From contig CAKQEP010000001.1 in assembly GCA_934230325.1 (NCBI GenBank), positions 148,739 to 212,738 of the forward strand: a stretch of 64,000 nt of DNA, given 5' to 3'. Shown piece by piece: positions 5,504-63,863 of this stretch. The first letter of the stretch is position 1. Every line of letters begins with the position of its first letter. The notes under the pieces are model-generated. The model had not been told where the DNA came from, made no database searches, and saw only the letters and a list, made by a program, of their open reading frames with translations. The translations under genes and the position numbers were made by a program. Origin of the DNA: an uncultured Clostridia bacterium. GTDB lineage: Bacteria > Bacillota > Clostridia > Christensenellales > CAG-314.

Positions 5504-5517
5504 TATCAGCGTAAATA

Positions 5518-5629
5518 ATATATCGGGGTGCCCAACAGGCTGAGAACATACCCGCTAAACCTGTCAAGATAATGCTTGCGTAGGGAAAATACACGTTTTT
5601 TCACCTCGCGGTTTTGCGAGGTTTTTTTG
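5518..5629 (+). promoter_or_regulatory. TPP (THI-box) riboswitch with terminator expression platform
   Basis: cggggtgcc...ggctgaga...accc...aacctg...ataatgc..gcgtagggaa matches the THI-box consensus. It is followed by hairpin acctcgc-ggtttt-gcgaggt and a T-run (5603..5629). Confidence 0.9.
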
Positions 5630-7149: not shown

Positions 7150-7233
7150 GCGGATGTGGCGAAACTGGCAGACGCGATAGACTTAGGATCTATTGTTTAT
7201 GACGTGCAGGTTCAAGTCCTGTCATCCGCACCA
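7150..7233 (+). tRNA. tRNA-Leu (anticodon UAG), class II with long variable arm, CCA encoded
   Basis: Acceptor gcggatg/catccgc. Anticodon arm ataga-CTTAGGA-tctat. T-loop ttcaagt. Ends in CCA. Confidence 0.9.
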
Positions 7234-7392
7234 GCGTCGGCTACGCTTTTAGTCGGTACACAAAAGACTTGCTCGTCGGCAAGTCTTTTTGTATACCTTC
7301 CTTTATGCTTGCCGACTTGCTTACTTCGGTAGTACTTAAAACTTTTTTGTGACGCTTCGCTTCGCTCGCTATTCCGTCGCTGTCGCTCCTTA
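7234..7392 (+). repeat. tRNA-linked conserved element, copy 1 (159 nt; contains terminator-like hairpin 7262..7292)
   Basis: Block-wise homology to 62405..62562 (minus strand). Block A gcgtcggctacgcttttagtc abuts the CCA. Then a hairpin, block B ttcctttatgcttgccgactt, tagtac, and block C aaaacttttttgtgacgcttcgcttcgctcgctattccgtcgctgtcgctcctt. Confidence 0.7.
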
Positions 7393-7413
7393 CAAGTCCT
7401 GTCATCCGCACCA
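7393..7413 (+). repeat. exact 21-nt duplicate of the tRNA-Leu 3' end (T-loop C56 to CCA)
   Basis: caagtcctgtcatccgcacca is identical to 7213..7233. No tRNA 5' half precedes it. Confidence 0.95.
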
Positions 7414-7506
7414 AACAAGAATAATACTAACCTTGATGGGAAGTCGGAGTTCGTATTATTTTTTACACGTGAGTATTTCGGAATTATTTGTAGATTAAAG
7501 CAATGG

Positions 7507-8682
7507 TTAACAAACCACTTCGTCCATTAAACTTGCCAACAGTTTCATTCGCTCTTCTACCATATCCCATTTTTGAGAGCCTTTAGAAATAAGTGCAATT
7601 AAGCGATATTTTTCAATTTGTTCTTTCGTATACCCCTTAAATTCTTCATCTAATGCTGTTGCTTTCGCAGAACTAAAGGCGGACAACTTTTTATTAACGA
7701 TATACAATTGATTAAGTTTTTTCGTGGCATTTTCCACAAAATTTACGAAGCCATATCCGCATAACATAAATAAAAATTTGACAAATCTTTTATTTATACC
7801 CGAAGAAAACTTCCAAGTGTTATCTGCAGCGAGGCCGTCCAATTGCGCAATCAATAAATTCGTTCTGGTCAATGCTACTCCCGTAATACCTTGTGAGTTT
7901 TTAACATATTCAATAATATCAGCATCGATACCGCCCATAGGTAATTTTTCTTCAAATATTCCAATGGCAGCATAAAATAATTTATCAAACTCCTTTCTTT
8001 TATCTTCCCACGATAATTTACCTAAAAGATTTTTGCTATTCACGCGCAATAAATACTGCTCTAATTGTGAATCGGGAATAGAGTTTATAATTTCTCCAGC
8101 ACGTAACCGTTCTTGATTTTGAACGAATCTAAAATATTCTGCAATTACATTGTCATCTTGATGAGAAATATAAGTCAGAGCCATATTATAAGAATCAAAA
8201 TCCGATCTCATTAAACTTGCAAGAGTATTGTAGGTCAAAAAAACTTTTTGACCTTTAAGGTATCTTCTATATAGTTTTATTGCTTCAGTATCTTTGCCTT
8301 TATTATTTTTTATATCGTATTCATAAGATTCAACATTGTCTTTAATGATTCTTTTTGACAAATCATCATTTACGGAAAAATCACCTTGTGTAAACTCATA
8401 AATAGTTGTCAATCTTTGTTGACCATCCACCACTTCTGTGTCTGCTCCTTTATCATTGCGCTCTGTCAAGTTTCTAATTATAACACTTCCGACAGGGTAT
8501 CTTGACAAAATACTAAAAATAAGTTTTTCTTTAAAATCTTGATTCCAAACTGTACCGCGTTGGTATGATGGTTGTAAATCTAATCGATCATTTCCTATTT
8601 GATTTTTAAAAGCCGTAATTTTACTCATTAAAGTTGCAATAGGAAGAGATTCGTTATTAAATTTTATTCTTGTTTCCGCCAT
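7507..8682 (-). CDS. DUF262 (ParB-like / GmrSD N-terminal type) domain protein, stand-alone
   Basis: Motifs QPSYQRGTVW and VVDGQQRLTTI (DGQQR) are typical of DUF262. There is no DUF1524/HNH C-terminal domain. SD AAGGAG. A+T-rich relative to the flanks. Confidence 0.75.
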   Translation of the reverse strand: MAETRIKFNNESLPIATLMSKITAFKNQIGNDRLDLQPSYQRGTVWNQDFKEKLIFSILSRYPVGSVIIRNLTERNDKGADTEVVDGQQRLTTIYEFTQGDFSVNDDLSKRIIKDNVESYEYDIKNNKGKDTEAIKLYRRYLKGQKVFLTYNTLASLMRSDFDSYNMALTYISHQDDNVIAEYFRFVQNQERLRAGEIINSIPDSQLEQYLLRVNSKNLLGKLSWEDKRKEFDKLFYAAIGIFEEKLPMGGIDADIIEYVKNSQGITGVALTRTNLLIAQLDGLAADNTWKFSSGINKRFVKFLFMLCGYGFVNFVENATKKLNQLYIVNKKLSAFSSAKATALDEEFKGYTKEQIEKYRLIALISKGSQKWDMVEERMKLLASLMDEVVC

Positions 8683-8782
8683 AAATATCTCCTTATATTT
8701 GTTATTTTATTAGATTCTAGCATAAAATTAAGAAATTGTCAATAGTTTTGAGTAAACTTTAATAGAATCTTTATAAAATTTT

Positions 8783-8807
8783 AAAAGCCGAGTTTTTCTC
8801 GGCTTTT
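8783..8807. terminator. intrinsic terminator (bidirectional shape)
   Basis: aaaagccgag-ttttt-ctcggctttt. Confidence 0.7.
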
Positions 8808-8810
8808 ACA

Positions 8811-9113
8811 CTATATATCTGCACTAATTTCATAAATGACATTGTCATCGTCGAACAAACTCATTTGCGAATACATAATTGGTGAAGTTGCATAACAAGT
8901 TGTTATCAACTTCTTCAAGTGTAAAGCATTAAAGTTTAACGCAAAATAGTTAAAATAATTGCTTTTATAAGGATCATCACAATGGCAAAAAACGGTTTTA
9001 TTATTAAAATATTTCCTATAATGCCTTAACTTATTTTCAATTGTGGTTAATTGAGTATAAAATTCATCGGTTTTCCCAGCACTGAAGATTTGCAAATTGC
9101 TGTTGGTTACCAC
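8811..9113 (-). pseudogene. N-terminal about 100-aa fragment of an M.EcoRI-like adenine DNA methyltransferase
   Basis: TDEFYTQ..IENKL.HYRKYF..KTVFCHCDDPYKSNYFNYFALNF..L.LKKLITTCY matches, from my memory of the sequence, the N-terminus of M.EcoRI (SDEFYTQ..IENEL.YY..HF..KVVYCNCDDP..SNFFKYFAVNF..LGLKKLIASCY). The ORF stops before the NPPF catalytic motif. GTG start with SD AAAGGAG. Confidence 0.6.
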
Positions 9114-62201: not shown

Positions 62202-62220
62202 TAAAATTGTACAAACCAAA

Positions 62221-62250
62221 AAAGACTTGTCAACAAGCAGGTCTTTTTTT
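62221..62250. terminator. intrinsic terminator (A-run/T-run flanked)
   Basis: aaagacttgt-caaca-agcaggtcttt followed by a T-run. Confidence 0.6.
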
Positions 62251-62251
62251 G

Positions 62252-62383
62252 GTTGCGACTACAAAGCGGAAAAAACGGGAACCCAAAAAGTTGTAAAACT
62301 TTTTGGGAAAAGGAGCAGCAAGCGTAAAAGCAAAAAGACCGTCCAAAGGACAGTCTTTTGCAAAAATCGCTTTGCTGCGACGT
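62252..62383 (-). repeat. degenerate extra copy or fragments of the tRNA-linked element
   Basis: Read on the minus strand: acgtcgcagcaaagcg, hairpin gcaaaagactgtcc/ggacggtctttttgc, acgcttgct-gctcctt (block C with an internal deletion of about 26 nt), a second hairpin, then ccgctttgtagtc (3' half of block A). Confidence 0.4.
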
Positions 62384-62404
62384 TGGCAAGGGTAGCAGGA
62401 TTCG
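62384..62404 (-). repeat. exact 21-nt duplicate of the tRNA-Gln 3' end (T-loop C56 to CCA)
   Basis: tggcaagggtagcaggattcg is identical to 62563..62583. There is no tRNA 5' half. Confidence 0.95.
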
Positions 62405-62562
62405 CAAGGAGCGAAAGCGACGGAATAGCGAGCGAAGCAAGCGTCACAAATAAGTTTTGAATACGGCTGTACTAATAAAGTCGGCAAGCAAATAAGGAAC
62501 AATAAAAAAGGTTTGCTTGTTTGCAAACCTTTTTTATTGTGACTACAAAGCGTAGCCGACGC
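62405..62562 (-). repeat. tRNA-linked conserved element, copy 2 (158 nt)
   Basis: Minus-strand order: CCA, gcgtcggctacgctttgtagtc, hairpin aaaaaaggtttgc/gcaaacctttttt, ttccttatttgcttgccgactt, tagtac, aaaacttatttgtgacgcttgcttcgctcgctattccgtcgctttcgctcctt. Confidence 0.7.
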
Positions 62563-62637
62563 TGGCAAGGGTAGCAGGATTCGAACCTACGAATAACAGG
62601 GTCAGAGCCTGTTGCCTTACCGCTTGGCGATACCCCT
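62563..62637 (-). tRNA. tRNA-Gln (anticodon CUG), CCA encoded
   Basis: The reverse complement aggggtatcgccaagcggtaaggcaacaggCTCTGACcctgtt...ggttcgaatcctgctacccttgcca folds as a cloverleaf. Confidence 0.9.
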
Positions 62638-63297: not shown

Positions 63298-63444
63298 TTT
63301 GACTCAATATGTTAAACAAAAAATATTTGCATTTTTGTCGGCAAAACTCTTGTACGTATGTTTGTTTTTGCGACAAAATATTTTTTTCTTGTATTAAGGC
63401 GAAACGCGTCTTTAAGGTGTTACCTCAAAGACGCGGCAAAACGT

Positions 63445-63768
63445 GAGAGCAGTCTATAAGCCGAGTTCTGTATTTGACGGCCATCTATCTACGCCTTGCG
63501 TCTCCGCAAGGCTCCAGCGACATATCGAGACGTCGGGCAAACGTTTTATCTCATTTCTTGCACCGAGCGGGGTTTACATTAACGACGAGTTACCACGCCG
63601 TTCGTAGGCTCTTACCCTACGTTTCCACCCTTGCCAAAATTTTGGCGGTTTATTTCTGTTGCACTTTCCTTAAAGTCGCCTCCACCGGGATTTCTCCGGC
63701 GCTCTGCCCTATGGTGCTCGGACTTTCCTCGTTGGGGAGTTGCCCCACCGCGACCGTCTGGCTGCCTC
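63445..63768 (-). ncRNA. rnpB: RNase P RNA, bacterial type A
   Basis: Minus strand: gaggcagccagacggtcgc...GAGGAAAGTCCGAGCaCCATAGGGCAG...AGTGCAACAGAAAtAAACCGCC...GGTAAGAGC...GTAAACCCC...ACAGAACTCGGCTTAT. Ends are approximate, within about 5 nt. Confidence 0.9.
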
Positions 63769-63863
63769 GATTATTATTTTATACCACTCTTTTAATTTTG
63801 TCAACCGTTGGCAACAAGTACAAGCAATGCAAATACAATATACGTATAGGGAGGGCAACGACA

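Follow-up and report, generated by a model that had tools for sequence, protein, structure and literature searches.

A gene-less insertion of 135 to 180 bp with a conserved core of about 45 nt at the 3' ends of tRNA genes in uncultured gut Clostridia

The 3' ends of tRNA genes are classic landing sites of prophages and genomic islands, and an integrative element that replaces the native trailer of a tRNA typically brings a terminator with it. To our knowledge, the smallest users of these sites carry genes or derive from gene-bearing elements. For instance, CIMEs, which are cis-mobilizable attL-attR pairs without recombination genes described in streptococcal ICE families, are kilobase-sized deletion derivatives of identifiable ICEs. 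The ssrA-specific islands of Dehalococcoides reportedly form arrays of units bounded by a repeat of about 20 nt from the 3' end of this tRNA-like gene; unlike the module described here, they are said to bear genes and to have an adjacent site-specific recombinase. Integron cassettes, some of which are gene-less, have one site per circle, rely on recognition of a folded single strand, and join next to a fixed site, such that older units lie distally. Lastly, MITEs are small, noncoding, nonautonomous, multicopy, and strain polymorphic, with terminal inverted repeats and fixed duplications of 2 to 10 bp that are not specific to tRNA ends.

Work on the attP and attB sites of mycobacteriophage Ms6, which belong to the T-loop class of tyrosine integrases, provides a mechanistic point of comparison. 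The 26-bp Ms6 core covers the whole T arm, including both stem strands and the full 7-nt loop, and changing the attP core alone retargets the Ms6 integrase to the T-loops of other tRNAs (PMC1762012). Casposons, which are 8 to 20 kb long and have terminal inverted repeats, Cas1, and PolB, also integrate at tRNA 3' ends, where they leave target duplications of 14 to 35 bp and can reinsert in tandem at the same site (PMC4779613).

Here, we describe a module found twice in a stretch of 64,000 nucleotides (the window) from an uncultured Clostridia bacterium of the CAG-314 lineage (GenBank contig CAKQEP010000001.1, positions 148,739 to 212,738). Directly after the CCA of tRNA-Leu(UAG) and of tRNA-Gln(CUG) lies a module of 159 or 158 nt, respectively, followed by an exact copy of that tRNA's own C56 to A76. 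The features of the window are as follows.

7150..7233, plus strand: tRNA-Leu(UAG), intact, CCA encoded; insertion target and left border (ARAGORN; Rfam tRNA, 57.5 bits)
7213..7233, plus strand: proximal 21-nt repeat (tRNA-Leu C56 to A76), exact duplicate of 7393-7413
7234-7392, plus strand: interior of the Leu module, 159 nt
7234..7261, plus strand: block A, beginning directly after the CCA (alignments)
7262..7290, plus strand: the module's own terminator hairpin, with an A-tract, an 11-bp stem, and a T-tract (sequence, alignment, and fold)
7298..7318, plus strand: block B, TTCCTTTATGCTTGCCGACTT (alignments)
7349..7392, plus strand: core C, GTGACGCT..GCTATTCCGTCGC..GCTCCTTA, the sole part conserved across species, always abutting C56
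7393..7413, plus strand: distal exact copy of tRNA-Leu C56 to A76, missing along with 7234-7392 in the empty allele L013
61502-61576: tRNA-Gly(GCC) (ARAGORN and Rfam)
62205..62275, minus strand: U3, a partial third unit with the second half of block A and a hairpin nearer the Leu type (alignment)
62300..62383, minus strand: U2, an older decayed unit with an A-like start directly after the distal CCA and a terminator hairpin (alignment and terminator scan)
62384..62404, minus strand: distal exact copy of tRNA-Gln C56 to A76 (0 of 100 shuffles)
62405..62562, minus strand: Gln module with block A, terminator (62499-62540), block B, and core C (62405-62447), 78% identical to the Leu module
62563..62637, minus strand: tRNA-Gln(CUG), intact (ARAGORN and Rfam)

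An earlier note on this DNA had described, behind tRNA-Leu(UAG) at 7150..7233, a 159-nt segment closed by an exact 21-nt copy of the tRNA's 3' end, and ARAGORN, Rfam, and a shuffling analysis all bear this description out. The Leu 21-mer, CAAGTCCTGTCATCCGCACCA, occurs exactly twice in the window (7213-7233 and 7393-7413; 0 of 100 shuffles), as does the Gln 21-mer, CGAATCCTGCTACCCTTGCCA, on the minus strand (62563-62583 and 62384-62404; 0 of 100 shuffles). No tRNA 5' half was detected before the distal 21-mer by ARAGORN or by a permissive Rfam scan, in agreement with the claim that the copy is not a second gene. Behind tRNA-Gly(GCC), there is no module, and the trailer is ordinary.

The two interiors align from end to end at 78% identity (126 of 161 columns), so the homology that had been proposed between the 159-nt and 158-nt segments holds over their whole length. 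Identity reaches 95% in the first 20 and last 40 columns and falls to 55 to 75% across the middle, with 55 to 65% in the hairpin region. Since the interiors are only 78% identical, the Leu and Gln modules represent old, separate lineages rather than recent mutual copies. Nevertheless, both distal 21-mers are perfect despite 22% divergence of the interiors (P of about 0.008 if neutral). The flanks of the two loci are unrelated, as are the tRNAs, and a recent segmental duplication, which unrelated flanks exclude and which would sit poorly with interiors at 78% identity, was rejected as an explanation. A 23-mer from block C has no occurrence in the window other than those in the Leu and Gln modules. 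Two more copies of the module, U2 and U3, lie distal to the Gln copy in a decayed state; the core remnant of U2, ACGCTTGCTGCTCCTT, has an internal deletion.

The block structure proposed for the module stands as far as homology goes, with two corrections: the homologous part of block A reaches about 21 nt, and a "tagtac" motif placed after block B does not occupy homologous positions in the two copies. The first 21 nt of block A (7234-7254) are common to the Gln copy as 16 identical nucleotides, a 1-nt gap, and 5 identical nucleotides, and the last 7 nt diverge. GTCGGC in block A is able to pair with GCCGAC in block B (block A versus the reverse complement of block B, p=0.004/0.038). The hairpin stem differs between the Leu and Gln copies at two positions, both of which are compensated (A-T to G-C and C-G to T-A), and thus the stem has changed with its pairing kept, as the earlier note had read it. 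In the Gln copy, a terminator scan identified an 18-pair terminator with a T-run, flanked by A- and T-tracts; the Leu hairpin has only two G-C pairs and therefore falls below the scanner's rule of at least three.

Strain variation shows that the module is an insertion. Same-species contigs L006 and L007 have filled alleles identical to the window at the Leu locus. In contrast, the Logan contig L013 (run ERR7746751) reads gcaggtt-CAAGTCCTGTCATCCGCACCA-aacaagaataatac, the last segment starting with aacaag: the T arm of tRNA-Leu runs directly into the sequence found after the window's distal 21-mer, and the CCA is genome encoded at this empty site. The filled and empty alleles differ by exactly 159 + 21 bp. 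This exact difference excludes a decayed tandem tRNA gene, and the presence of an empty site in the same species defines the module as a discrete 180-bp insertion. The search for empty sites in sister strains, which the earlier note had recommended, thus uncovered one, and it upheld the idea that a discrete unit enters at tRNA 3' ends, where C56 to A76 is left behind or regenerated. Of the findings that had been named as contrary to that idea, a full tandem tRNA gene was seen in no sister genome, and the flanks of the two loci, being unrelated, do not fit a segmental duplication. A decayed second tRNA gene was also rejected on other grounds, including the lack of any ARAGORN or Rfam signal and the occurrence of the same core before 3' pieces of five tRNAs, in addition to the clean 180-bp empty allele.

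In a further run, ERR7738273, the contig on the tRNA side ends in ..ccgcacc, and the contig on the opposite side begins with agtcctgtcatccgcacca-aacaag. Logan assemblies are built with k=31, a word length above that of the 21-nt repeat, and so contig breaks flanking the 21-mer suggest that filled and empty alleles coexist in this sample. At the Gln locus, all of the strains looked up are filled and identical, with no empty allele among them. The genes adjoining the Leu locus encode a HIT protein, a GmrSD-type protein, a methylase fragment, and FeoB, such that a GmrSD/methylase islet follows tRNA-Leu. Sister species reached via homologues of the HIT protein (L020-L032) have no tRNAs and no units there; the synteny of tRNA-Leu is not conserved.

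Beyond the window, the module is recognizable through core C, a segment of about 45 nt made up of GTGACGCT, 12 to 15 variable nt, GCTATTCCGTCGC, 1 to 13 variable nt, and GCTCCTT(A/G). An nhmmer profile of core C matches the window at 7349-7393 (E=1e-11), and copies beyond the window were found in L001, L002, L009, and L039-L050. The invariant blocks of 13 and 7 nt recur across at least four species and five tRNAs. Core C and its C56 junction lie behind tRNA-Leu(UAG), tRNA-Gln, tRNA-Arg, tRNA-Leu(GAG), and tRNA-Pro(GGG), and the hosts beyond the window are uncultured gut Clostridia. In all copies, C56 of the tRNA 3' piece directly follows core C, and this junction is invariant. Every copy of core C that we found is tRNA linked, with none elsewhere to speak against the earlier note. 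Between the CCA and core C, all of the sequence is lineage specific; the sequences that follow the CCA are unrelated between lineages (GCGTCGG.., TCTGACAG.., GTAAATAAG.., and CTTTTGAAG..).

A scan of 185,579 species, each with one representative genome, with the 20-mer TTCGCTCGCTATTCCGTCGC returned two loci. In L001, from an uncultured Christensenella metagenome-assembled genome (MAG), tRNA-Arg(ACG) is followed by a terminator, core C, and cgaactcc.., a decayed tRNA-Arg 3' piece. In L002, from a Clostridia MAG, tRNA-Leu(GAG) is followed by tandem 128-bp units that each close with core C and caagtcgccgacaccgcacca. The distal copy in L002 departs from the tRNA next to it at 5 of its 21 positions and, unlike the proximal copy, mismatches the tRNA 5' half. 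This distal copy fits another tRNA-Leu, and the array has an N-gap and may be misjoined. The claim that each copy has its own tRNA-specific 21-mer stands at the window loci, and tRNA-Pro shows a like arrangement; the exceptions are the differing distal copy in L002 and decayed distal copies in L001 and L041. Units in L001, L009, and L002 have an extra tRNA-specific segment, an inverted copy of tRNA positions 60 to 72/75, which is not present in the window copies. Arrays also contain decayed units and a second unit family. In addition, a BLAST search against phage records led to MT835800, a sequence from human feces labeled "Bacteriophage sp." that proves to be a piece of a chromosome carrying a hydrogenase operon; it begins inside an array of 135-bp units.

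The neighboring hydrogenase protein was used to reach 23 strain contigs of a species like "Clostridium sp. CAG:349," of which 20 were scorable at tRNA-Pro(GGG). Eleven of these have no unit, seven have one, and two have at least two. Together with the Leu locus, this means that two species are polymorphic for both the presence and the number of units. Unit-free alleles consist of the tRNA, a 55- to 68-nt trailer (S) with a terminator, and the flank, while one-unit alleles consist of the tRNA, S, a 46-nt core C, and the 21-mer. The S of the unit is about 95% identical to the trailer of unit-free alleles. A 13-nt indel in S yields an inverted copy of the tRNA-Pro 3' end, and this too is found in unit-free alleles. 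In L040, S is repeated after the 21-mer to give a duplicated block of 89 nt; between the two copies of S in this block there are three to four differences, at positions that are also variable among strains. More generally, in L040 and L042, the proximal S and the S beyond the distal 21-mer differ at strain-variable positions. In contrast, L045, L049, and L050 have an unrelated trailer after the distal 21-mer, which leaves a repeat of exactly 21 nt. The same S-C unit occurs in two unrelated trailer backgrounds of one species. Across the family, the repeat starts at C56 throughout and extends to the right over different lengths: 21 nt at three independent sites (the window copies and L045/L049/L050), 68 nt in L002, where the copies are not identical, and 89 nt in L040.

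The tRNA-Pro gene also offers an internal contrast. In L041, L043, L047, and L048, a tyrosine-integrase prophage has integrated into this very gene by classical means, and its scar is a 45-nt repeat that starts from the anticodon loop and has no core C. In L037 and L042, a MITE of 415 bp, with inverted repeats of 22 bp, interrupts core C. A candidate kinship between core C and a small hairpin module downstream in L049 was rejected; they have in common a 12-mer, TTCCGTCGCTCT, at only p=0.013.

Searches for genes, structure, and parents of the module gave consistently negative results. No open reading frame is conserved between the copies because indels shift every frame, and a 708-amino-acid concatenation of core open-frame translations from five copies gave 0 of 8,000 word-sharing candidates at E <= 10. 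Rfam yielded nothing relevant for the module at the gathering cutoff or at E up to 10, no sigma-70-like promoter was detected inside it, and core C with the 21-mer has no conserved fold (RNAalifold, -0.98 kcal/mol, 0 compensatory pairs), which speaks against the earlier suggestion of a structured RNA module. Terminal inverted repeats are lacking as well (p=0.53 for Leu and 0.23 for Gln, relative to shuffles, when the first 45 nt are compared with the reverse complement of the final 45 nt); with a left end unconserved between lineages, this disfavors a two-ended transposon. Pfam assigned 30 large open reading frames in the window to housekeeping functions, with no recombinase, transposase, Cas1, PolB, or reverse transcriptase among them, and the neighboring genes are housekeeping or defense genes, with no recombinase beside any copy. 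The earlier statement that the window has no recombinase gene thus holds for these 30 frames and for the genes adjoining tRNA-Leu and tRNA-Gln.

Likewise, no larger, integrase-bearing parent with core C was found in the 185,579 species representatives, in IMG/VR, or in INPHARED. Among the 2.9 million viral contigs of IMG/VR, the 20-mer had no match, and the gapped core pattern had one chance match in a phage tail gene. The sole match in INPHARED was a mislabeled bacterial scaffold rather than a phage with core C. An exact scan of JGI metagenomes with the 20-mer gave three matches, all by chance inside a high-GC soil coding gene, and a plasmid BLAST gave one chance match only. A phage BLAST with the tRNA-Pro unit and the L001 array produced nothing new, and the core C profile revealed no divergent copy elsewhere in about 300 kb of fetched loci, prophage ends included.

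How, then, does the module compare with the known systems? It works most like a CIME or an att-site mini-element, and a CIME-like attL-attR mini-element is the best fit among the candidates that the earlier note had listed. Like CIMEs, it has att-type direct-repeat flanks, no integrase of its own, presumed movement or accretion by a helper, and tandem arrays at one site; unlike them, its unit is 135 to 180 bp long, has no identifiable parent, and keeps the same architecture across tRNAs and species. Features of the T-loop integrase class are present, namely, a direct repeat of a tRNA 3' end with an intact tRNA on one side and empty sites, whereas two others, a symmetric core and a linked integrase, are absent. 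As in Ms6, the repeat extends from the T-loop to the acceptor end and the tRNA is regenerated, and in Ms6 a core change retargets the site; identity in the module, however, begins at C56, its left half is the unrelated GCTCCTTR, and no int gene is adjacent (PMC1762012). In all five tRNAs, C56 is preceded by GCTCCTT(A/G) and not by G53-T54-T55 and the stem.

The module resembles casposons in its place at tRNA 3' ends, its long repeats of tRNA sequence, and its tandem arrays at one site but has no terminal inverted repeats and no Cas1 that we could see (compare PMC4779613). It is as small, noncoding, multicopy, and polymorphic as a MITE and, without inverted repeats and with its specificity for tRNA ends, is neither a MITE nor a casposon. 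The genuine MITE inside core C of L037 and L042 shows this contrast within a single locus. Integron attC sites offer a looser analogy: core C of three lineages is flanked by inverted arms of tRNA origin that may be attC-stem-like. The module nevertheless lacks IntI and the GTTRRRY core, its junction is TT|C rather than G|TT, and the window copies have no such arms. Three further candidates were rejected: an IS91-type GTTC/CTTG target, which gives no duplication; an IS200/IS605-TnpB "scaffold plus flanking guide" arrangement for core C and the 21-mer, given a foldless core and no TnpB in sight; and a homing spacer of a type V-K CAST, for which no transposon is present.

The family is therefore a real, polymorphic, gene-less, tRNA-end-specific insertion with an invariant core of about 45 nt. 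We tentatively favor, at a probability of roughly 40%, a bare attachment-site mini-element whose movement would depend on single-site recombination in the T-loop by an enzyme acting in trans. Such a gene-less miniature integrative element would amount to an attachment site with its own terminator. When excised, the unit would read core C, tRNA C56 to A76, and then the trailer with its intrinsic terminator, for a size of 180 bp at the window loci and of 135 bp at tRNA-Pro. Core C would serve as the binding site for a recombinase whose gene lies elsewhere; this enzyme would recombine the unit with the T-loop of a matching tRNA gene, with strand exchange between T55 and C56. After integration, the tRNA would keep a correct 3' end and gain the element's terminator, and the displaced original 3' end would become the distal 21-mer behind core C. 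Arrays could grow as further units integrate or through unequal crossing-over, the units most distant from the tRNA then being the oldest, and the reverse reaction or slippage between 21-mers could restore the empty site. Recombination would presumably be conservative, with a crossover at 55/56 and the enzyme in trans, and each lineage probably keeps to one tRNA and rarely switches its target.

Several observations argue for such an attachment site. Only the C|C56 junction is conserved across lineages, which favors a bare site and single-site recombination, and a shared core C with unrelated sequence after the CCA is expected of a circular, one-site element rather than of a two-ended transposon. 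The fixed start at C56 and the variable right end point to an att identity block instead of a target duplication of fixed length. The differing S copies in L040 and L042 look as if an incoming unit had carried its own copy, and the compensated terminator stem is a further point for an integrative element. The lack of terminal inverted repeats, the age and separateness of the Leu and Gln lineages, and the precedent of Ms6 retargeting through its attP core count in favor as well. The inverted tRNA segments, which go beyond what a target duplication accounts for, suggest that the L001, L009, and L002 lineages are tied to one tRNA.

Against the attachment-site reading, there is no recombinase beside any copy and no full-length parent with core C. 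The identity block starts from C56 and leaves out T54, T55, and the T stem's 5' strand, and so it does not form a symmetric core like that of the 26-bp Ms6 attP. Apart from core C, the half-sites vary with the tRNA, and a double-stranded circle of 135 to 180 bp is a poor substrate for recombination. At the window loci, where each tRNA's exact C56 to A76 sits between identical A and C borders, target copying is simpler. Also, with a T-loop crossover, a mismatch would be expected in the proximal copy rather than, as in L002, in the distal one, although this MAG has an N-gap inside the array.

Among the other readings, target copying is the one that we weigh most seriously, even though we consider it unlikely. 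A nonautonomous element would enter by staggered cuts at T55|C56 and A76|N77, and gap repair would then produce a true 21-bp target-site duplication; the enzyme, encoded elsewhere, would be a tRNA-shape-reading transposase or a Cas1/casposase-like integrase. Copying accounts directly for one module behind two unrelated tRNAs with each tRNA's own C56 to A76 between identical borders, for a repeat length of exactly 21 nt in all cases with an unrelated native trailer (the empty and filled Leu alleles and L045/L049/L050), for distal 21-mers that stay perfect next to 22% interior divergence (P of about 0.008 if neutral), and for the lack of a symmetric recombinase core. Casposons set a precedent with their 14- to 35-bp duplications from tRNA 3' ends and tandem reinsertion, but all described bacterial casposons are intergenic (PMC4779613). 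Copying cannot yield the tRNA-specific inverted segments inside units, and it fits poorly with the missing terminal inverted repeats and a left end unrelated between lineages, with the 5 of 21 mismatches in L002, and with the 89-nt block of L040, whose two copies are unlike. Moreover, the window copies are old (78% identical), with no recent burst, and the window frames scanned encode no transposase or Cas1. A related proposal, to which we give a somewhat smaller chance, is that core C is the sole cis-requirement of an undescribed, tRNA-shape-reading insertion system of gut Clostridia that would join GCTCCTTR to C56 of any tRNA gene and copy C56 to A76 from the target. Its enzyme might act on folded single strands like an integron integrase, be Cas1-like, or be RNA templated. 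That the units are instead passive relics of larger integrative elements, themselves immobile and varying through homologous recombination, repeat slippage, and allele exchange, strikes us as improbable. tRNA loci are hot spots, as the integrase prophages in the same tRNA-Pro gene (L041, L043, L047, and L048) and the GmrSD/methylase islet behind tRNA-Leu illustrate; arrays do hold decayed units and a second family, and deletion between direct repeats of 21 to 89 bp would recreate empty alleles. Random decay, however, would not leave invariant 13- and 7-nt blocks in at least four species and at five tRNAs while all else differs, nor the same A-terminator-B-C architecture at two tRNAs or the same S-C unit in two unrelated trailer backgrounds of one species. 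Core C is also missing from the 2.9 million viral contigs and the phage genomes, and the scar of the tRNA-Pro prophage (a 45-nt repeat from the anticodon loop, without core C) is of another kind.

Two further readings appear to us very improbable. One is RNA mediated: a reverse transcriptase would extend the CCA of a mature tRNA on an element transcript, the primer would be recopied, and the cDNA would anneal into the tRNA gene. There are parallels in Neurospora retroplasmids, whose cDNAs are primed by mitochondrial tRNAs, and in the retroviral primer-binding site, which is regenerated by copying the tRNA primer. The element does start exactly at the CCA end, the repeat is tRNA specific and has A76 as its precise last position, and a segment complementary to the tRNA 3' end is present in some units. 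Yet that segment spans the discriminator and CCA positions, occurs in alleles without core C, and is not in the window copies, and since the CCA is genome encoded at the empty site, it is not diagnostic of an RNA-mediated route. We know of no block to reverse transcription at tRNA position 55, no reverse transcriptase was seen in the window frames scanned, and the module has a strong terminator after block A and no detectable internal promoter. The other, of similarly slight probability, is that a host-beneficial RNA or regulatory module, such as a 3'-trailer small RNA or a tRNA-like decoy, is kept for function rather than mobility. The strong conservation of block A and core C, the perfect distal 21-mers, and a terminator maintained via compensatory change would suit such a role. 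The unit is nevertheless dispensable, being absent in 11 of 20 readable tRNA-Pro alleles and having its core split by a MITE in two strains; no Rfam match emerged at E up to 10, no internal promoter was detected, and core C with the 21-mer folds at -0.98 kcal/mol without a covarying pair.

Whichever way it moves, a unit of 135 to 180 bp that carries only a terminator and a core of about 45 nt varies in present-day gut populations. Such units fragment short-read assemblies where tRNA genes lie, give rise to annotations of partial tRNAs, and place terminators after tRNA genes. If target copying is true, they would point to a new tRNA-directed insertion chemistry, and if a shape-reading system is at work, a signal of about 45 nt would be able to colonize many tRNA genes without damage. 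If single-site recombination is true, the unit would be among the smallest integrative elements known to us, and core C would provide a compact handle for finding the recombinase.

Gene-less units that end in tRNA 3' pieces also occur outside the core-C family: in an uncultured Christensenella metagenome-assembled genome (MAG) (L001, 3950-4540), the core-C unit at tRNA-Arg is followed by a tandem array of three units, each about 220 nt long, that belong to another family. Each carries its own terminator and has as its 3' end cgaatactccttatggtgcgca, a slightly changed tRNA-Arg 3' piece.

At the tRNA-Leu locus, a "native" hairpin lies beyond the distal 21-mer (window 7420-7460; AATAATACTAAC, 17 nt, GTTCGTATTATT). 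The empty allele of the same species (L013) also has this hairpin, which is similar to both 22-bp inverted repeats (GCCAACAGATAATAATACGAAC) of a 415-bp miniature inverted-repeat element (MITE) that interrupts core C in two tRNA-Pro(GGG) contigs (L037 and L042) of a different species. By this likeness, the hairpin may be a collapsed mini-copy of the MITE family. Farther out lies a small islet:

Window 7507-9113, minus strand: defence-type islet between the tRNA-Leu locus and feoB
Within 7507-9113, minus strand: GmrSD_N/DUF262 protein, 391 aa
Within 7507-9113, minus strand: EcoRI-methylase fragment, 100 aa

The islet suggests that an older island was once present at tRNA-Leu; no additional tRNA-Leu 3' remnant was found as far as window 9600.

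Prophages have entered the tRNA-Pro(GGG) gene that core-C units also use in four strain contigs, all via the anticodon loop, with a repeat that starts with ATGGGGTTCAAG. Their integrases are 406 to 409 aa long:

L041, 5115-6338, minus strand of the locus: prophage tyrosine integrase
L043, 4984-6204, minus strand of the locus: prophage tyrosine integrase
L047 and L048, 5178-6407, minus strand of the loci: prophage tyrosine integrase

A motif close to the prophage integrase end, TTGACGACAA, is found again as a direct repeat in the unrelated trailer, Y, beyond the distal 21-mer of L045, and its recurrence suggests, from sequence, that this trailer is an old phage-arm remnant. Y takes the following form in two other strains:

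L049, 4955-5560, and L050 (reverse complement): Y region that follows the distal 21-mer, about 590 nt long

Here it comprises three successive modules, each with a TTGACA/TATAAT-like promoter, a long hairpin, and a T-run, which could be small RNA genes; Rfam gave no match for them. The trailer S behind tRNA-Pro (L035 to L055) is polymorphic for a 13-nt indel, ATGTCGGGTGAGA. Where these 13 nt are present, the trailer repeats the tRNA-Pro 3' end in inverted orientation over 14 nt, with the discriminator and the initial C of CCA among them, and comparable inverted copies occur at tRNA-Arg in L001 and, more weakly, at tRNA-Leu(GAG) in L002.

Two structured RNAs in the window are ordinary:

Window 5514-5603: TPP riboswitch upstream of a thiamine-transporter-like gene
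Window 63440-63769: bacterial RNase P RNA (class A) near the tRNA-Gln locus

In some strains of one related species, a 342-bp insertion with an 89-aa open reading frame of no known family lies between rpsU and a helix-turn-helix gene (L022, L023, L026, and L027, 3716-3985); it is absent from other strains (L020 and L021).

The array record L009 (GenBank MT835800.1) is titled "UNVERIFIED: Bacteriophage sp." It has an NADH-dependent [FeFe] hydrogenase operon with 99% identity to Clostridiales MAG proteins and looks like a bacterial chromosomal fragment rather than a phage. Short-read contigs L008, L014, L016, L018, and L033 have ends that fall within units or at unit edges; the unit family fragments assemblies at tRNA loci, and MAG-based surveys will under-represent the core-C unit family.
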